Part shown: piece by piece, positions 1-5,683 of the stretch
Numbering within the stretch: the stretch's first letter is position 1
How the letters are laid out: each line of letters starts with the position of its first letter
Translations under genes and position numbers: made by a program
Notes under the pieces: model-generated
The model's database searches: none
What the model saw: only the letters and a program-made list of their open reading frames with translations
Told to the model about the DNA's origin: nothing
DNA from: Spirochaetales bacterium
GTDB lineage: Bacteria > Spirochaetota > Spirochaetia > SZUA-6 > JAFGRV01
NCBI GenBank assembly: GCA_016934975.1
Contig: JAFGRV010000019.1
Span: forward strand, 1-50,544
Direction of reading: 5' to 3'
DNA length: 50,544 nt

Positions 1-1700
1 TATCGGGAAAATATAAGGGTCACTATATCCATTCACGGCATAATCCTCTGCGGGAGTCTACTCAGCTCATTGAACGGGAAACAAAAGGAGATATCTCCTG
101 CGCACTCTTCTATGGCTTCGGCCTTGGGTACCACATAGAAGCATTCATGAAAAAATACCCATCAGTTCCCGTTCTCATTATCGAGCCGGAACCATCGTTT
201 TTTCACAAGGCTCTTGAATCGAGAGATCTCACATCCCTCTTTCAATCAACCTCTCTCCTCTATTATATTAATCCCGACCCGGATAACCTCATTGAATTTA
301 TAGAACAACTTCCCCTTTCTAACATACAGATTATACGCCTGCGGTCCATGTACGGATTCACTGCGGGATATTACAAACAGGTTGATGGAATAATTCAATC
401 CTATCTTTCGCGAAAAGAAGTAAATGTGAACACCTTAAAACGTTTCGGAAAGCTATGGGTTAATAATCTGGTTCATAATGTAGGCGAGCTTATTAAAAAA
501 CCGGGAATTACCCGCCTGGAAAACGAACTGGAGGGCATTCCATCCCTTGTCCTCGCTTCCGGTCCTTCTCTGGAACTCATCCTTCCCCATCTACCGGAAT
601 TAAAGAAAAGGATGATACTTATTTCCGTTGATACATCTCTCCGGGCCTGCCTTGCACAGAAGGTGGAACCGGATTTTCTTATTGTGGTTGATCCTCAATA
701 CTGGAATTCCCGTCATCTTGACTGGCTCTCCTGTAAAAACGCTCTCCTTCTCTCGGAATCTTCCACCCATCCCCGGGTGTTCCGTGACCTTACTATAGAC
801 GGATTCTTTGCAAGCTCTTTCTTTCCCCTGGGTATTTTCTTTGAATCGATTGTGGGAGATAAAGGGAAAATAGGTGCCGGGGGGTCGGTAGCAACCTCTG
901 CATGGGATTTCGCGAGAATCCTCGGAACATCCCCTATTTTTATGGCGGGACTGGATCTCGGCTTTCCTCACAAAAAAACACACTTTCACGGGGCATATTT
1001 CGAGGAGTGCTTTCACCAGATATCGGACCGGTATTCCCCCATGGAACACAAATCCTTTACCTATATAAGAGACGGAAAACCCTTCCCGGTCATCTCAAAT
1101 AACGGAAGTACGGTATTAACGGATCAGCGGATGATTATTTATAAATGGTGGTTTGAATCCCAGATGAATGCGTACCCATCACTTCCCACCTATTCCCTTT
1201 CCCCCGGAGGTGTCGCGATCCCGGGTATAATGGTAAGGGATGTAAAGGATCTCCTGAATCTTCCGCTACGAAGAGAGGATATCGATGAGAAGATGAAGCG
1301 TATCCGTTCATACACTCATGGGATTCCGGATCATGATAAGGTAGCTGCAAAACTCAAGAGAGCGATAGAGGAACTTCTCACGAATCTTCATCTCCTCGCG
1401 GATATTGCGGATGAGGGGATTACAACAACAGAAAAAGCGATCTCACACCTGTCTCACGGGAAAATTCCCCCTTCTTTCGTCGAAAAATTAAATAAGATTG
1501 ATAAAAAAATCTCCTCCGAATCATCCAGAGTTATCGCGGGGTTTCTTATCCAGCCGGTCATCCAGGGATTATTACACACATCAACTCACGATAAAACACC
1601 CGGGGAGATTTTAGCCTTTACCAAAGAACTGTATACGGAACTTAAATCGTCCTGCGACTATCATTACAAAGCACTCATAAAAGCTGAAAAAAAATTTTAA
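1..1700 (+). CDS. Motility accessory factor (Maf)/DUF115-type protein, putative flagellin glycosyltransferase; 5-prime partial, runs off the window start
   Basis: The ORF-track ATG at 147 is internal. The same frame is open from nt 3, and the upstream codons read SGKYKGHYIHSRHNPLRES...CALFYGFGLGYHIEAF, continuous with MKKYP. The core LVLASGPSL...ISVDTSLRACL...PDFLIVVDPQ resembles the MptE-like/DUF115 fold of Maf proteins (recalled, not searched). Confidence 0.6.
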   Translation, partial: SGKYKGHYIHSRHNPLRESTQLIERETKGDISCALFYGFGLGYHIEAFMKKYPSVPVLIIEPEPSFFHKALESRDLTSLFQSTSLLYYINPDPDNLIEFIEQLPLSNIQIIRLRSMYGFTAGYYKQVDGIIQSYLSRKEVNVNTLKRFGKLWVNNLVHNVGELIKKPGITRLENELEGIPSLVLASGPSLELILPHLPELKKRMILISVDTSLRACLAQKVEPDFLIVVDPQYWNSRHLDWLSCKNALLLSESSTHPRVFRDLTIDGFFASSFFPLGIFFESIVGDKGKIGAGGSVATSAWDFARILGTSPIFMAGLDLGFPHKKTHFHGAYFEECFHQISDRYSPMEHKSFTYIRDGKPFPVISNNGSTVLTDQRMIIYKWWFESQMNAYPSLPTYSLSPGGVAIPGIMVRDVKDLLNLPLRREDIDEKMKRIRSYTHGIPDHDKVAAKLKRAIEELLTNLHLLADIADEGITTTEKAISHLSHGKIPPSFVEKLNKIDKKISSESSRVIAGFLIQPVIQGLLHTSTHDKTPGEILAFTKELYTELKSSCDYHYKALIKAEKKF

Positions 1701-1742
1701 ATTTTCTTAAACTTATAGACCAATCCGCCGATTTAATAAGTG

Positions 1743-1768
1743 GAAAGCATAAACGCTTTCTTTTTATT
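1743..1768 (+). terminator. Rho-independent terminator candidate after the maf-like gene
   Basis: GAAAGC (1743-1748), 6-nt loop, GCTTTC (1755-1760), then TTTTTATT (1761-1768). It lies 43 nt after the stop at 1700. Confidence 0.5.
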
Positions 1769-1851: not shown

Positions 1852-1880
1852 TTGACCAGGAGTACCAATCTTGTTATAGT
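1852..1880 (+). promoter_or_regulatory. Sigma-70-type promoter with extended -10, upstream of the small ORF/hydrolase cassette
   Basis: TTGACC (1852-1857), 17-nt spacer, TGtTATAGT (TG at 1872-1873, -10 at 1875-1880). It sits about 55 nt upstream of the ATG at 1935. Confidence 0.5.
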
Positions 1881-1934: not shown

Positions 1935-2096
1935 ATGAAACCTGAAAATATTAACGATGATCAAAATAAGAATGAAAATGAACCGATCATTATTCATTCG
2001 ACAGTCGGATCCATGAGAAAAGAGGGAATCCGGCTTCTCAGCGGAAATAAATATACTCTGATTTTGAAACCAAAAAAGTTCGTATACTCTTTTTAG
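1935..2096 (+). CDS. Small hypothetical protein (53 aa), first gene of the hydrolase cassette
   Basis: Below the ORF-track length cutoff; translated by hand as MKPENINDDQNKNENEPIIIHSTVGSMRKEGIRLLSGNKYTLILKPKKFVYSF*. AGGGAGG (1924-1930) lies 4 nt before the ATG. The stop TAG (2094-2096) is 12 nt before the hydrolase ATG. No recognisable family. Confidence 0.4.
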   Translation: MKPENINDDQNKNENEPIIIHSTVGSMRKEGIRLLSGNKYTLILKPKKFVYSF

Positions 2097-2108
2097 GCGG
2101 GATATATC

Positions 2109-4790
2109 ATGGCCCTTTCATATCCCATCGAAATTACCGATGCATCACTTATTTTTGAAAATAACGAGACTCAAAAAGGCGGATTTTATCCCCTCGGTGC
2201 GAATAATTTATGGCACAGCGGTATTCATCTCCACGGTTACACGGCACGGGCAATCTATGACGGTGAGATTTTAGCCTGCCGTTTGGATGAGGAGTATTGC
2301 ACCGATGATCTGGGTGAAGGGGATTCCATTACTTATTCAAGGAATTTTGTATTAGTAAAACATCATTTAATAATTGATGAAAAGGGCGTGAAAAATGCGC
2401 CGGCATTTATAAGCTCGATGTATGATGTGGATCCTTATCTTGATGGATTAAAAGGAGAAGTATATTTTTATACTTTATATATGCACCTTGCGCCAACGAA
2501 TATATATGACATTACTATCCCGGCGCCTGAGTTCATGAATACAAAGATTTGTGAATTTATTTGTAATACCGAAGAAGATACCCTGGGGGGAGAATCGGGA
2601 TTAAATGTACGAAGTAGTCCTAATGGCTCAAAAATCGGTTTATTAAAATATGGAGAAACAGTTCACTTTGAAAATCCCCTGGATTTTATTAATAATCCCG
2701 GGGGATGGAAAAAAATCAATCCCACTCCCTATGGGGCCGGTTCAGCATATATTTTCTGCTCACCAAAGAGCGGAGGGGGAGAACGGATAAAAAAGGGTGA
2801 TGAAAAAGACATACCGAAGAATGAGATCGTTGTCTTTGATAATCCGGTAAAAGTTACTGCCGGAGAGTATTTGGGGTACTGCGGCAAATACGGACCCCAG
2901 GAGAATATGTTTCATGTCGAGATTTTCCTGGATAATGTCATGTTTATGGATATGGATCCGGAATCAGTTGACCTGGGAAAAATCTATTTTTTTGAGAAAG
3001 ATTTTAATGAATTTAAAAAGGGTGCCGATTTTGAGAAAATTCATACGGACTTTTATGAGGGATCACAATTTTACAGTTTAGATAATGCTGACGGCGCGTA
3101 TAAAGTCAAAGTAAAAAAAGCCAATTTATGGATAGAAAAAAGTAAACTACATTGGATCGATTCAATAAGTCGTTATAAATGGAAAGACACTGTCAGCGAG
3201 GCTGTAGGTTATATGACAGACATCGGAAACGCCTCGGACGCGATGGAAGTAAGTGTCAGCAGCAGCGATGAATTTAAATTTCCCGGCTGGGATCTCGCTA
3301 AAACTGTGGGCGGTATAGAATACAGGAAAATTCAAGTCTCTGTAAAATACGATGGTGCTGTCACCGGATGGCTGAGCAAGAAGCAAATGGAGAGTAAAGT
3401 AAACTGGGAGTACAGTGCAGGAACCTTATTCTTAAAAGTAAAAACCGGAGCTCAAATCGCCCATTTATATAAAACGAATCCGGAAGAAATAAATTTTACC
3501 AGTGCATTAGGAGAGAGTTTAACCAAGCCCCTGGAAGTCGGTATCATTAATGGGGGGATAAAAGAGGTTAAGGATAATGATAATGTAGAATGGCTGGGGT
3601 TTACGATAAAAAAGGAGTTTCTCGGGAGTGGAAGCGAAGATGTCACTGGTTGGATAAAAAAAACAGATGCCGAAACAAAAATAATCAATTATTTCGATTG
3701 GAAAAAATTTTTTGATAAGCTGGAACCTGAATCCGACGGAGATAGTTTATGTGACAATAGCGAATTGGTAAATAAAATTGAAAATGCCGCCCAATATACA
3801 GGATCTCCATATGATCCGGACGTCTCTATCGATAATTCATTAACCAGCGAGGAGCTTTTATTAGCGTTGCAGGATGAAAGCATTGCAGCGGAATTAAGAA
3901 GAATGGTGGTCTGCCATCCTACGGAATGGAGTAATGCGGTTAATTATGATAAATTTAAAGATAATCTTAAAGATCTTTATCTCTTTAATGATAACCAGGT
4001 AAATAAACTCATGACCCATATTGAAAATATGCAATGGTGGGAAGAGGTGCAAACGAAAAGCGGTAATCAATTACCTTCCGATTCAAAAAAGATATGGTAT
4101 TTCCATCCAATTGCATTGATTGAGCATTTAAAGAAATTAAAGATAGGTATCCCGAAAGTAGAAATGTTGATCGACCACGAAGCAATGGACTATTGGTTTG
4201 ACAAAACCTATGAATCCTCAAAAAATGCAAATGGTAATTTTGCCCGAAGTCTCGATGATATTATCGAAGTCACGATTCATCATACAGAGGGAAATAGTAA
4301 TTGGTTGGATTCAAAAGGTATGATTTATGACGGCTGGCCTCTTTACGGGGGCGGCGATAATAAAGAAAATTATAAAAATGGTATAAGTTTATATAATTAT
4401 TTTTTACAAAAAGACGGCACATTAGTCGAGTGCGCCCCCTTAACAAGATGGTATAAACATTCTCATGCTAATATTCAGGATAAATATCATGTCGGTATTG
4501 AAATAAGTCATTCGACCGGTCCTTTTACCGATGAGCAGTATAACATGTTATTTGCTTTTATTTTCGATCATATTGCATCTCTCTGTATGAACTTCAAACG
4601 CATTTCCTGTCATGCATTTAATAAATGGCATTTTACAAGCGGGGGAACAAAGGAGTGTCCGTCAAAGGATTTTCTTTTCTCAAAGCTTGTAGCGGAAATG
4701 ACAAACAGGGGAATGAGTTTTACCACGGAAGATACGGAAGGTGCATACGGGGATCATGAATATTACCGATACACTATCACCTCATTTTAA
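2109..4790 (+). CDS. Multidomain peptidoglycan hydrolase: N-terminal M23/LytM-like domain split by an SH3b insert, further SH3b-like modules, a helical linker, and a C-terminal N-acetylmuramoyl-L-alanine amidase (Amidase_2/PGRP fold)
   Basis: M23-like elements: NNLWHSGIHLHG (aa 32-43), FYTLYMHL (aa 120-127), VTAGEYLGYCGKYGPQENMFHVEIF (aa 249-273). SH3b-like: GLNVRSSPNGSKIGLLKYGETV...GGWKKI (aa 164-203). Later modules end in TGWL (aa 419-422) and TGWI (aa 512-515). Amidase_2-like: IEVTIHHTEG (aa 719-728), HVGIEISH (aa 794-801), SCHAF (aa 833-837), KECPSKDF (aa 848-855). No N-terminal signal peptide or TM segment (MALSYPIEITDASLIFENNETQKGG). Confidence 0.75.
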   Translation: MALSYPIEITDASLIFENNETQKGGFYPLGANNLWHSGIHLHGYTARAIYDGEILACRLDEEYCTDDLGEGDSITYSRNFVLVKHHLIIDEKGVKNAPAFISSMYDVDPYLDGLKGEVYFYTLYMHLAPTNIYDITIPAPEFMNTKICEFICNTEEDTLGGESGLNVRSSPNGSKIGLLKYGETVHFENPLDFINNPGGWKKINPTPYGAGSAYIFCSPKSGGGERIKKGDEKDIPKNEIVVFDNPVKVTAGEYLGYCGKYGPQENMFHVEIFLDNVMFMDMDPESVDLGKIYFFEKDFNEFKKGADFEKIHTDFYEGSQFYSLDNADGAYKVKVKKANLWIEKSKLHWIDSISRYKWKDTVSEAVGYMTDIGNASDAMEVSVSSSDEFKFPGWDLAKTVGGIEYRKIQVSVKYDGAVTGWLSKKQMESKVNWEYSAGTLFLKVKTGAQIAHLYKTNPEEINFTSALGESLTKPLEVGIINGGIKEVKDNDNVEWLGFTIKKEFLGSGSEDVTGWIKKTDAETKIINYFDWKKFFDKLEPESDGDSLCDNSELVNKIENAAQYTGSPYDPDVSIDNSLTSEELLLALQDESIAAELRRMVVCHPTEWSNAVNYDKFKDNLKDLYLFNDNQVNKLMTHIENMQWWEEVQTKSGNQLPSDSKKIWYFHPIALIEHLKKLKIGIPKVEMLIDHEAMDYWFDKTYESSKNANGNFARSLDDIIEVTIHHTEGNSNWLDSKGMIYDGWPLYGGGDNKENYKNGISLYNYFLQKDGTLVECAPLTRWYKHSHANIQDKYHVGIEISHSTGPFTDEQYNMLFAFIFDHIASLCMNFKRISCHAFNKWHFTSGGTKECPSKDFLFSKLVAEMTNRGMSFTTEDTEGAYGDHEYYRYTITSF

Positions 4791-4876
4791 GTCAATCACC
4801 CGAAACGGATTTTATATTGAAACTCTTGGGTGAATGGTGAGTTTTCTCATCATCATTTTATCCCTTATAAGCTCCC

Positions 4877-5341
4877 TTACCGTCCGGTAAGGGAAATAAT
4901 CAATTCCACTTCACCGATAGGGAGGTTCATATGATTTGCGATGACGGAAGTGGAGAATCCTTCGCGGTAAAGCTTTAATACCTGGTCTTTTACATCAACC
5001 TCTTTTTTTATTTCAGGGCTTTTTTCGGTATCTTTTTTATTCTGTGTCAAAATATTGGAATAATTTTTACTCATGCTGTATTTTTCCGATTCGCGGCGCA
5101 AGAGAGCTATCTTTTTATCGGCTTTATCCATCAGGTCACTGAGCTCATTGATTTTATCTTCGATAATATTTATATTTCGTTCCGTCGTATTGTTAAGCTG
5201 TAGAATAATCCGGTCTACTTCCACCCTGATTTCATCGATAAGGGCTTTGGGATTGACAGATGAGTTGATTTTTCTTACCAGGATAAGATAGAGGATGGCG
5301 AAGCCCATAAGAATAAGACTGATAGTTACTATATAGATCAT
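4877..5341 (-). CDS. Membrane-anchored coiled-coil protein with a C-terminal helix-turn-helix-like segment; last gene of the minus-strand array
   Basis: N-terminal TM segment (IYIVTISLILMGFAILYLILV), a charged heptad-like middle, and a C-terminus KDQVLKLYREGFSTSVIANHMNLPIGEVELIISL resembling a small HTH. ATG start; 9 nt after the upstream stop. Confidence 0.6.
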   Translation of the reverse strand: MIYIVTISLILMGFAILYLILVRKINSSVNPKALIDEIRVEVDRIILQLNNTTERNINIIEDKINELSDLMDKADKKIALLRRESEKYSMSKNYSNILTQNKKDTEKSPEIKKEVDVKDQVLKLYREGFSTSVIANHMNLPIGEVELIISLTGR

Positions 5342-5350
5342 AGATGTTTA

Positions 5351-5683
5351 TTATCCGGTTATATCGATATGATGTCCAAGATATGGTTCTTTAAAAAATT
5401 GTTTTTCTTCATTTTTTTTGTCCGCCTCTTCTTTTTCCCGCTTTTTTTGCTCTGCTTTGGTCTCATTTCCCTTATTTTTCTCCTCGTCCTTTATTTTTTC
5501 AATACCTTCTTTTATCTCATCCGTCTCATTCACACTCTCGTCTTTTACTTTTGCATCTTTTGCAATCTCCATCCCCTGGAGAGATTGATGAAGATGAGCC
5601 GCATCTTTTTGTACCGCCTGATCTTTTCCAATTTGATTTAGATGAGAAAACATGGTCTGTAAATCAATCGGGAGCAAAGGCAT
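5351..5683 (-). CDS. Small K/E-rich hypothetical protein (110 aa)
   Basis: MPLLPIDLQTMFSHLNQIGKDQ... followed by a low-complexity K/E/D tract. ATG lies 3 nt after the fapA-like stop. Operon position and strand bias support coding; no family recognised. Confidence 0.5.
   Translation of the reverse strand: MPLLPIDLQTMFSHLNQIGKDQAVQKDAAHLHQSLQGMEIAKDAKVKDESVNETDEIKEGIEKIKDEEKNKGNETKAEQKKREKEEADKKNEEKQFFKEPYLGHHIDITG

Follow-up and report, generated by a model that had tools for sequence, protein, structure and literature searches.

The WHIX domain, whose signature is WHxxxH, was defined by Fridman et al. (PLoS Biol 2025, PMC12135965), who established by experiment that it is a T6SS loading domain; in their survey more than 98% of the genomes with WHIX carry a T6SS. 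Published work also showed that WHIX binding requires the C-terminal 14 residues of VgrG4. TseP of Aeromonas dhakensis, cited in PMC12135965 as a WHIX-containing secreted protein, has an N-terminal domain that is reported to be a Zn-dependent amidase, to bind VgrG2 (Wang et al., eLife 2025, PMC11893102) and to superpose on the M23 structure 3SLU (PMC11893102). In this work we analysed a window of 50,544 nucleotides from a Spirochaetales bacterium (contig JAFGRV010000019.1), in which two consecutive ORFs encode proteins of 53 and 893 amino acids (aa). Its assignment to a Spirochaetales MAG is supported by FliG, which shares a 90% cluster with proteins bearing that name. The explanation that we favour, and consider moderately likely, is that these two ORFs are together an orphan module, probably acquired by horizontal transfer, that encodes cargo for a contractile injection system (CIS), either a T6SS or a phage-tail-like CIS.

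The larger ORF (2109..4790, + strand) starts with ATG and was confirmed to be real. Its ATG is the first start past an in-frame stop, so an upstream extension cannot add a signal peptide, and in a Kyte-Doolittle analysis the N-terminus is hydrophilic and no hydrophobic segment is seen, the highest 19-residue mean being 1.15. The protein is thus signal-less and devoid of a TM segment, as the earlier note had read it, and because it has no Sec signal it would need a non-Sec route. It is a singleton, seen only here and in a second assembly of the same sequence, and its identity with any relative is about 25–39%. Used as a single sequence, it gave no phmmer match in the PDB and no relatives in a metagenome scan; PADLOC returned no match, and no spirochaete locus was present in the best 80 of 338 of a genome-collection scan.

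The first ~680 residues, described in the earlier note as a variant M23 domain, are assigned here to the bipartite WHIX domain, and the 893-aa protein as a whole is, judged from its sequence, a divergent WHIX effector of subclass I. The WHxxxH signature is present as W35-H36-S-G-I-H40 (WHSGIH, beginning at aa 35), with W35, H36, G38 and H40 invariant or nearly so in 46 relatives, and these relatives align at aa ~1–135 and ~240–680, on either side of a variable insert. WHIX region 1 (aa 1–135; 2109..2513, + strand), the first half of an M23-like core, also carries H85 and a YMHL motif that begins at aa 124 and contains H126. The second half of the core (aa 239–285; 2823..2963, + strand) contains G256, G259 and the MFHVEIF segment beginning at aa 267, where H269-V-E271-I-F273 includes an H-x-E motif (H269 and E271), and it aligns on the GWSGSTG...HLHFQ of lysostaphin. 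WHIX region 2 (aa 286–680; 2964..4148, + strand) is made of all-beta modules (aa ~290–517) followed by a part that is helical and contains an EF-hand-like loop (aa ~570–583), HPTE606W607, WW and WYFHP667. The conserved positions of the domain are Y124, H126, G256, G259, H269, E271, W531, E606, W607, W644 and P667, the last five being invariant or nearly so in the alignment of the relatives. The insert that splits the core (aa 136–238; 2514..2822, + strand) differs in length between relatives. It is SH3b-like, as previously noted, although weakly so: the Pfam SH3_3 score is 17.6 bits (aa 163–204), below the cut-off of 27, SH3_3 is detected in 11 of the 46 relatives, and a profile of aa 1–300 matches the 67-residue PDB chain 9ovi ("Conserved domain protein") at the insert with a value of 5.8e-4.

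The relationship of the core with M23 peptidases is visible by profile comparison. The same profile of aa 1–300, built from 12 sequences, matches lysostaphin 4qp5 (E=1.3e-3) in a register that places WHxxxH on HxxxD and ..HFE on HLHFQ, and it has weak matches with SpoIIQ, zoocin A and TagE (E 0.06–0.16); hhalign of the effector N-terminus with five M23 domains gave E=1.7e-5 and a probability of 78%. Pfam found no PF01551 match at E<=1, and the canonical M23 motifs are altered in the way first described from the sequence, HxxxD reading H36-S-G-I-H40, with His for Asp, and HxH reading M267-F-H269, with the first His lost. The proposal of an M23-like N-terminus is supported by profile and HMM–HMM similarity, the variant M23 domain of the earlier note being the WHIX domain. 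We conclude that the WHIX core is by its motifs derived from M23/LytM, with a putative H-H-H metal triad (H36, H40, H269) replacing H-D-H. The WHIX domain may also have a Zn-dependent amidase activity of its own, such as is reported for TseP-N, since it retains the conserved His and Glu. AlphaFold2 prediction of the full-length protein from a 12-sequence alignment had a mean pLDDT of 33, while prediction with the 46 relatives gave a confident WHIX part and left the amidase part unmodelled: pLDDT is about 86–96 in region 1, except for a loop (aa 97–114) specific to this protein, and mostly 72–97 in region 2, with dips to ~61–65 near aa 371–380 and 561–570. Foldseek comparison of the whole model with the PDB and BFVD found nothing meaningful (E>0.01, TM<0.1), and so gives no independent confirmation of the fold.

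The C-terminal toxin domain (aa ~715–870; 4251..4718, + strand) is recognized by Pfam, by profile and by alignment as an Amidase_2 domain, and its predicted activity is that of an N-acetylmuramoyl-L-alanine amidase. Pfam Amidase_2 (PF01510) matches aa 721–852 with 28.9 bits against a gathering cut-off of 26, over positions 8–130 of the 131 of the model, and a profile that includes stand-alone relatives matches AmpD 1j3g (8e-8) and XlyA; the C-terminal domain on its own found no match in a word-index search. The motifs IHHTE (aa 723), SCHAF (aa 833) and TKECP (aa 847) provide the predicted Zn ligands H724, H835 and C850, and E798 and K848 are the predicted catalytic residues. In an alignment with 12 stand-alone relatives, H724, H835, C850, E798 and P851 are invariant, and K848 almost so. 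The domain thus appears intact, including the H/H/C zinc set first recognized by eye, and the architecture initially proposed (an M23-derived N-terminus, an SH3b-like insert and an intact Amidase_2) is largely upheld.

An exhaustive search identified 874 related representative proteins, the best full-length ones covering aa ~1–680. What follows the WHIX domain varies: among the 46 relatives the C-terminus is GH19 (8), M23 (7), GH46 (3), phage lysozyme (2), Amidase_2 (2) or CHAP (2), and SLT, glucosaminidase, M74 and Ntox44 are also found. This exchange of peptidoglycan-hydrolase C-termini is a polymorphic-toxin pattern. The ORFs immediately upstream of 60 relatives match Phage_GPD (VgrG; 26), Phage_base_V (25), DUF6484 (17) and PAAR-type domains (9); when the overlap between Phage_GPD and Phage_base_V is allowed for, a spike-type gene (VgrG, PAAR or gp5-type) lies directly upstream in roughly 42–47 of the 60, about 70–80%. 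One relative (P0003) is encoded within a T6SS cluster, after VgrG and before an LprI immunity-type gene. Flagellar genes were not found beside any of about 168 related loci, the sole match being a generic MotB/OmpA-like one. The survey of homologue neighbourhoods, which the earlier note had proposed, thus finds spike genes to be common and flagellar genes absent, and together with the family assignment it favours the antibacterial effector that the note had listed as an alternative.

The effector gene has a small partner. A 53-aa ORF (1935..2096, + strand; MKPEN...LILKPKKFVYSF), overlooked at first reading, ends 12 nt before the effector gene, has a strong ribosome-binding site (AGGGAGGA) and was also given a gene call in an independent assembly. 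The protein ends in KFVYSF, which fits the motif [FYIVLM]x[FY]Sx-COOH carried by 30 of 60 and, in another count, 51 of 121 upstream carrier proteins, for a background of about 0.3–0.5%. Besides this short motif, the similarity of the ORF to others comes from one homologue, a 46-aa ORF (...LILRKRKFVFSG) situated between VgrG and a WHIX effector in another locus (L097). These features make the 53-aa protein a candidate free-standing spike-tail adaptor with a WHIX-docking C-terminal motif. No VgrG remnant is detectable by phmmer upstream of it, and no plausible ORF lies within 1701–1934. A promoter-like site of the sigma-70 type that has an extended -10 (TTGACC, 17 nt, TG-TATAGT; 1852..1880, + strand; 10/12 matches, TG present) is located 55 nt upstream of the 53-aa ORF; sites of this kind are not above shuffles in the region, and position is its sole support. 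The extended -10 promoter attributed to the effector gene therefore exists as a site, although it precedes the 53-aa ORF and not the effector gene directly, and its location upstream of an ORF with a strong ribosome-binding site suggests that the cassette is bicistronic. A terminator-like hairpin (1742..1761, + strand), a 7-pair stem followed by a T-run (TTTTTATT) that is a consensus match only, separates the cassette from the preceding gene. That gene encodes a 517-aa MptE/Maf-like protein (147..1700, + strand), so that a Maf-like gene does adjoin the cassette, as stated earlier, and the effector gene is not the only large plus-strand gene.

The rest of the window contains no obvious machinery for delivery. 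A phmmer search with 71 queries found no spike, sheath, tube, baseplate or T6SS membrane-complex gene in the 50.5 kb; the effector is not encoded beside VgrG or PAAR and is preceded only by the 53-aa ORF with its spike-like tail. The effector gene is not followed by a gene for a signal-peptide-bearing protein, which is how immunity is usually encoded: downstream is an 86-nt gap with a weak terminator-like hairpin (4834..4853, + strand; consensus match only), and then a DUF6115 gene of the flagellar operon (4877..5341, - strand), convergent with the effector gene as the earlier note had described for the whole minus-strand flagellar array. The GC3 of the cassette is 0.37 compared with 0.45–0.49 for the flagellar genes, and because of this difference its position by these genes looks incidental.

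A canonical T6SS is, to our knowledge, not known in spirochaetes, and we found nothing decisive in the literature on T6SS or CIS in these bacteria. A spirochaete CIS with WHIX-like cargo exists. In Treponema succinifaciens (CP002632.1) a phage-tail-like injection cluster encodes gp25, a 988-aa protein (whose counterpart in locus L002 is Baseplate_J), sheath, gp19 tube, DUF1257, P2 gpI and a gp5-type spike, and after this spike it ends in three ORFs: one of 45 aa, one for a WHIX-like protein of 1162 aa whose C-terminal domain is M23, and one for an SH3 protein. A gut-metagenome relative of this cargo is encoded in a second Treponema locus (P0007). The Treponema small ORFs (43–45 aa) lack the tail motif of the 53-aa ORF and show no significant similarity with this ORF; homology with the 43-aa ORF was considered and rejected, as the alignment score is no better than that of shuffles. 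The parts of the supplements of PMC12135965 that were available to us mention no spirochaete.

As the window holds neither a spike nor an immunity gene, CIS delivery in the Spirochaetales host is what we infer. We propose that the effector would be loaded in the cytoplasm and then fired across both envelopes, which would account for the lack of a signal peptide. The 53-aa protein would provide the docking tail (...KKFVYSF-COOH) in trans and bridge the effector to a spike encoded elsewhere, and the last ~180 residues (Amidase_2) would cleave the bond between the stem peptide and N-acetylmuramic acid in the target bacterium's peptidoglycan.

An alternative, which we regard as unlikely, is that the WHIX cassette was transferred without its injection machine and is a stranded relic or a domesticated autolysin, inert, released by lysis or used for the turnover of the cell's own wall. 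The 50 kb without spike, CIS or immunity gene, the singleton sequence and the low GC3 are all compatible with such an origin, and some close relatives are orphans too, for example P0016, which has no co-directional upstream gene. However, the ORF is intact across its 893 codons and has retained all family-invariant and amidase catalytic residues, the small partner ORF and its ribosome-binding site are kept, and a cytoplasmic amidase without an export route cannot reach peptidoglycan; moreover, orphan T6SS effectors far from their machines are well documented (PMC12135965, discussion). We consider it very unlikely that the protein is a phage-derived lysin, that is, a prophage or tailocin tail lysin or an endolysin that breaches peptidoglycan during infection or lysis and is not an interbacterial toxin. 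Tail lysins commonly carry M23 and amidase domains, the Treponema system is made of phage-tail parts, phrog_1493 is weakly matched by the whole protein, and the nearest relatives of the C-terminal module are stand-alone, endolysin-like proteins of 166–243 aa that match PHROG endolysin and amidase families. This origin, raised in the earlier note, is weak: only the amidase module resembles endolysins, only 3 WHIX relatives were found in 2.9 million viral contigs, there is no holin, capsid, terminase, tail or other phage gene in the window, relatives lie in T6SS clusters with immunity-type genes, and WHIX is experimentally a T6SS loading domain.

The hypothesis put forward at first, a FlgJ-like enzyme exported by the flagellar T3SS to open peptidoglycan for the periplasmic flagella, is hardly credible. 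In its favour, spirochaete FlgJ is not known to have a hydrolase domain, so that a separate enzyme is needed, the gene adjoins the end of the flagellar superoperon and a Maf-like gene, and a sigma-28-like match (TAAA-N15-GCCGATTT) is present at 1708–1734, but this match has 2 mismatches, is not above chance (13 found at this level for 7.3 +/- 2.9 expected) and precedes the terminator-like hairpin, the gene converges on the flagellar array, differs from it in GC3 and has a sigma-70-like promoter of its own, Pfam finds no FlgJ rod-binding or glucosaminidase domain in the protein, which belongs by sequence to WHIX, and most related loci carry spike genes and none of the about 168 a flagellar gene.

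We know of no described interbacterial injection weaponry in Spirochaetota. If the 53-aa and 893-aa proteins are CIS cargo, a handle family defined in 2025 and supposedly T6SS-specific would extend to this phylum, and WHIX would reach phage-tail-like injection systems, in which there is no T6SS membrane complex. The "mystery" WHIX fold would be a repurposed M23 peptidase core, and the conserved FxFSx tail at the C-terminus of VgrG, PAAR or mini-adaptor proteins would constitute a simple, testable docking code, usable for predicting carrier–cargo pairs and for engineering cargo loading. The first reading was misled by the proximity of the flagellar operon, and the finding of an effector tells nothing new on how spirochaete flagella cross the cell wall. 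We put forward tentatively, as a possibility, a more complete model, in which WHIX cargo is not T6SS-specific, a compact spirochaete phage-tail-like system loads it, a mini-protein of 45–55 residues supplies the hydrophobic-x-aromatic-Ser-x-COOH tail in trans, and this tail binds like a pseudo-substrate in the His-His-His groove that WHIX derives from M23. Were this model correct, the window would contain the smallest known module of an adaptor and an effector, which would also be the first to use Amidase_2 as its warhead.

The comparison with described systems can be made at four levels. With M23/LytM proteins (lysostaphin, LytM and NGO1686 3SLU, and the degenerate SpoIIQ and EnvC) the protein shares the order and spacing of the core motifs, the GxxxGxxG before the last His, profile and HMM–HMM matches in register and, with lysostaphin, an identical YMHL motif. 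It differs by HxxxH in place of HxxxD, by Met in place of the first His of HxH, by the ~100-aa insert inside the domain, by the lack of a PF01551 match, and because its domain is part of a far larger fold, the known role of which is to bind the spike. TseP is likewise a chimeric effector with two peptidoglycan-related modules, has HxxxH (H19/H23) in its N-domain, and shows the same 86-residue His spacing, H23–H109 corresponding to H40–H126, the residue match covering H19/H23 and the spacing to H109 (the Aeromonas relatives that we used are other WHIX effectors). In contrast, the C-domain of TseP is a lysozyme and not Amidase_2, and tseP is flanked by VgrG2 upstream and the TsiP immunity gene downstream.

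WHIX subclass I (PMC12135965; for example V. alginolyticus WP_005373349.1 and A. jandaei Awe1) provides the same overall plan: WHxxxH at the N-terminus, a conserved domain of ~650 aa in two parts around a variable insert, a toxin module directed at peptidoglycan at the C-terminus, no signal peptide, and a tail-bearing partner gene directly upstream. The docking tail is at the VgrG C-terminus in that subclass, whereas it is on a stand-alone 53-aa ORF here; the host here is a Spirochaetales MAG and not a T6SS proteobacterium, there is no nearby VgrG/PAAR or immunity gene, and the cargo is a C-terminal Amidase_2, while AmpD-like and PGRP domains are each reported once in PMC12135965, at the N-terminus. 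Finally, the Treponema cargo proteins differ by their M23 toxin domain, by a metal site that is partly lost (FHNGIN in T. succinifaciens; YMNL and no His of H-x-E in P0007), by small ORFs with acidic tails instead of FxYSx, and by the adjoining genes, which encode the spike, the baseplate and an SH3 protein whose N-terminus resembles a signal peptide. They share with the window a spirochaete host and the succession of a small ORF and a gene for a WHIX-like protein that ends in a peptidoglycan hydrolase; the WHSGIH variant of the motif is found in P0007 as well, and the helical part of WHIX region 2 can be aligned.

The effector is encoded by an ORF of 893 codons at 2109..4790 on the plus strand, as the earlier note had stated, and its first start codon follows an in-frame stop, so that no upstream extension could provide a signal peptide. 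Hydropathy averaged over 19 residues does not exceed 1.15 anywhere, and the protein starts with a hydrophilic N-terminus; by this crude measure there is neither a TM segment nor a Sec-type leader, again as claimed. The residues given in that note lie where it placed them, and the key motifs read W35-H36-S-G-I-H40, Y-M-H126-L, M-F-H269-V-E271, I-H724-H-T-E, S-C-H835-A-F and T-K848-E-C850-P. The first homologues found (770–967 AA) have the N-terminal ~680 residues in common and differ in their C-terminal peptidoglycan hydrolases. According to the WHIX paper (Fridman et al., 2025; PMC12135965), the WHIX domain, named after a W-H-x-x-x-H motif, consists of two regions separated by a variable sequence, is fused to polymorphic peptidoglycan-targeting domains, and suffices for T6SS secretion; its predicted role is to form a cap over the C-terminal tail of VgrG, and the last 14 residues of VgrG are needed for WHIX binding and delivery. 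An exhaustive HMMER search returned 874 representative relatives, 269 of them at E<=1e-10. The residues invariant or nearly invariant in a 46-sequence alignment (W35, H36, G38, H40, H85, Y124 and H126 in region 1; G256, G259, H269, E271, W531, E606, W607, W644 and P667 further on) are all kept in the window protein, and the extra domains of the aligned relatives comprise GH19, M23, GH46, phage lysozyme, Amidase_2, CHAP, SLT, glucosaminidase, M74 and Ntox44. AlphaFold2, run with this alignment, modelled AA 1–680 confidently (pTM 0.66, pLDDT 72–97 in most blocks), the N-terminal half being rich in beta structure and AA ~518–680 helical; Foldseek with the whole model gave no informative match. 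Its sequence identifies the window protein as a member of the WHIX family with an intact Amidase_2 module and no export signals.

The N-terminal part had been described as an M23-like core in which Asp is replaced by His and the first His of HxH is lost, with an SH3b-like insert. Pfam detects no M23 domain there, and the SH3_3 match at AA 163–204 is sub-threshold. A profile built from AA 1–300 and 11 relatives matched lysostaphin (E=1.3e-3), with HxxxD under WHxxxH and 'HLHFQ' under '..HFE', and more weakly SpoIIQ, zoocin A and TagE. The insert matched the 67-residue PDB chain 9ovi, and an hhalign comparison with five true M23 domains gave E=1.7e-5. On this profile-level evidence the description holds. 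TseP of Aeromonas dhakensis is a WHIX-containing secreted protein (PMC12135965). The TseP N-domain, with H19/H23 among the residues named, has been reported to be a Zn-dependent amidase and to be superposable on the M23 structure 3SLU. Region 1 of the window protein also contains a ~20-residue insertion (PAFISSMYDVDPYLDGLKGE, window 2397–2450, AA 97–114) that none of the relatives aligned at the N-terminus has and that is of low confidence in the model. In the helical part of region 2 lies an EF-hand-like loop (DPDVSIDNSLTSEE, window 3816–3857, AA ~570–583); canonical EF-hand Pfam matches occur at the equivalent place in 7 of the 46 relatives, for example DADNDGVLSSQE in the relative P0003, a sequence likeness that hints at Ca2+ binding.

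The relatives of the effector are spike-linked polymorphic toxins. P0003 is encoded directly 3' of VgrG in a T6SS-i cluster (TssJ/K/L/M, PppA, PpkA), and the next gene encodes an LprI-domain protein. Of 60 ORFs that immediately precede relatives, 26 match Phage_GPD and 25 Phage_base_V (VgrG), 17 match DUF6484 and 9 a PAAR-type domain. Hosts among the best 80 of 338 genome loci include Bacteroidota, Myxococcota, Chitinivibrionales, Pseudomonas, Aeromonas, Burkholderiales and Vibrio.

A 53-aa ORF (1935–2096, plus strand) with a strong ribosome-binding site ends 12 nt upstream of the effector ORF; gene calling in an independent assembly of this locus also recovered it. Its single homologue occupies the same position in the metagenome locus L097: the C-terminal half, KEGIRLLSGNKYTLILKPKKFVYSF, resembles a 46-aa ORF (KQGVALVPSCKITLILRKRKFVFSG, L097 401–541) located exactly between the VgrG C-terminus and a WHIX effector with 37% identity to the window protein across AA 2–130, a gene for a signal-peptide-bearing protein coming next. 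A common C-terminal tail is found on the proteins whose genes immediately precede those of WHIX effectors, as in Aeromonas (...AFYLFSE), Pseudomonas (...AFFVFSE), Massilia (...TFTFSA), Vibrio (...TFTFSG), Burkholderia (...YFPFSG), Myxococcus (...TFFFSV), Chitinivibrionales (...SFRFSE), a PAAR-like protein of Flavobacteriia (...IDFSV) and the related locus L173 (...NIEFSL). Of 60 upstream ORFs, 30 match the pattern [FYIVLM]x[FY]Sx-COOH; among all stop-terminated segments of these loci the rate is 0.56%, the 30 matches themselves being counted in this background. A wider survey, covering the ORF just before each WHIX effector (L007–L169, L173 and L174), found the pattern at 51 of 121 loci, against a background of about 0.3–0.5%; the carriers, of 46–847 AA, are VgrG, PAAR-like and other proteins from Proteobacteria, Bacteroidota, Myxococcota and Chitinivibrionales. 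We found no description of this tail in the available part of the WHIX paper (PMC12135965); it is probably the docking code for the WHIX cavity. The 53-aa ORF ends in KKFVYSF and satisfies the motif (F-V-Y-S-F), and one homologue and this short motif lead us to propose that it carries the WHIX-docking tail as a free-standing protein.

A contractile system was found in Treponema. The relative P0007, which has the WHSGIH variant in common with the window protein and a C-terminal M23 domain, neighbours gp25, Baseplate_J, sheath and gp19-tube genes and is preceded by a gp5-OB/PAAR spike and then a 43-aa ORF; the sheath at this locus is >90% identical to that of Treponema succinifaciens, as is its SH3 neighbour to Treponema MAG proteins. 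The compact T. succinifaciens cluster (CP002632.1; L171 1–15991), also seen in L002, L170 and L172, encodes in order gp25, a 988-aa protein (Baseplate_J in the L002 counterpart), a 164-aa protein, the sheath, a gp19 tube, a 432-aa protein, a 139-aa protein, DUF1257, P2 gpI, a gp5/PAAR spike, a 45-aa ORF (43–45 AA across these loci), a 1162-aa WHIX-like/M23 protein and an SH3 protein with a signal-peptide-like N-terminus, with no capsid or T6SS membrane-complex gene in view. Spirochaetes thus carry a phage-tail-like contractile system in which a small ORF and then a WHIX-like hydrolase come after the spike gene, and the 341 members of its sheath cluster indicate that the system is common in gut metagenomes. 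The 43–45-aa ORFs lack the tail motif and have no significant similarity to the 53-aa ORF. Metal-site residues are partly lost in the Treponema-type WHIX-like domains (P0007, P0011; L171 11576–15064): YMHL becomes YMNL, WHxxxH becomes FHNGIN in T. succinifaciens, and P0007 lacks the His of H-x-E. The window protein retains every one of these residues, and the comparison of sequences suggests that the WHIX metal site may be dispensable for loading, yet is kept in the window protein.

The cassette formed by the two ORFs (window 1935–4790) has a GC3 of 0.35–0.37, compared with 0.45–0.49 for flhA, fliI, fliG, fliF and flgE (window 5687–32285), and is flanked on both sides by terminator-like hairpins. 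An extended -10 promoter had been assigned to the large gene; a separate promoter-like site with an extended -10 is indeed present at 1852–1880, but before the 53-aa ORF. Lower GC3, hairpins and separate promoter-like site fit a horizontally acquired cassette placed by chance beside the flagellar operon. Neither a spike or CIS gene nor an immunity-type gene was found in the window, as might be expected of a stranded relic or an autolysin; with both reading frames intact and the conserved residues kept, we consider this explanation unlikely.

Amidase_2 (AA 721–852; 28.9 bits, cut-off 26) is the sole above-threshold Pfam match in the effector, and profile matches to AmpD (8e-8), amidase 7f5i and XlyA, together with the retained zinc and catalytic residues, bear out the intact C-terminal domain proposed before. 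In an alignment with stand-alone amidase relatives from the exhaustive search (166–243 AA, 30–42% identical), H724, E798, H835, C850 and P851 are invariant and K848 nearly so; on these residues the amidase looks catalytically competent. The stand-alone relatives match PHROG endolysin and amidase families, but the phage-like appearance is limited to this module, and only three WHIX relatives were found in 2.9 million viral contigs; that the effector is a phage lysin is distinctly improbable.

The flagellar array of the window includes FapA, FliA and FlhA among others, and its FliG falls within the same 90% cluster as proteins named '[Spirochaetales bacterium]', which bears out the assignment of the host. 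The array ends, as had been noted, beside the effector gene. Of its last two genes (4877–5683, minus strand), the final one (4877..5341) encodes a DUF6115 protein with a TM helix, a coiled coil and a DUF2802-like C-terminus; the other encodes a Lys/Glu-rich protein of 110 AA for which no family match was found. The effector gene is not the only large plus-strand gene, contrary to the earlier note: a Maf-type gene at 147–1700 (plus strand) encodes a 517-aa MptE-like protein (PF01973) that weakly matches the PseD flagellin-modification family, and ends at a terminator-like hairpin (1742–1761). The suggested sigma-28 motif, TAAA-N15-GCCGATTT (1708–1734, plus strand), lies just past the Maf stop codon and just ahead of the hairpin, and has two mismatches, a match as frequent in the window as chance predicts. 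Adjacency is the sole support for a flagellar FlgJ-like enzyme, and as about 168 related loci contained no flagellar genes, we hold that reading to be very improbable.

We favour delivery by a contractile injection system. The effector would be made in the cytoplasm, where its WHIX cavity would dock on the tail of the 53-aa protein, which would link it to a spike encoded elsewhere; once fired into neighbouring bacteria, its amidase would strip stem peptides from the glycan, and the His-His-His site of the WHIX core might add a second, TseP-N-like activity. The WHIX family is already known (2025), so that our main identification is of a further member. Compared with published WHIX effectors, the window protein belongs to a different host phylum and carries its Amidase_2 warhead at the C-terminus, the Treponema WHIX-like cargo is linked to a phage-tail-like system that is not a T6SS, and the putative mini-adaptor of the window, with its conserved tail, is detached.
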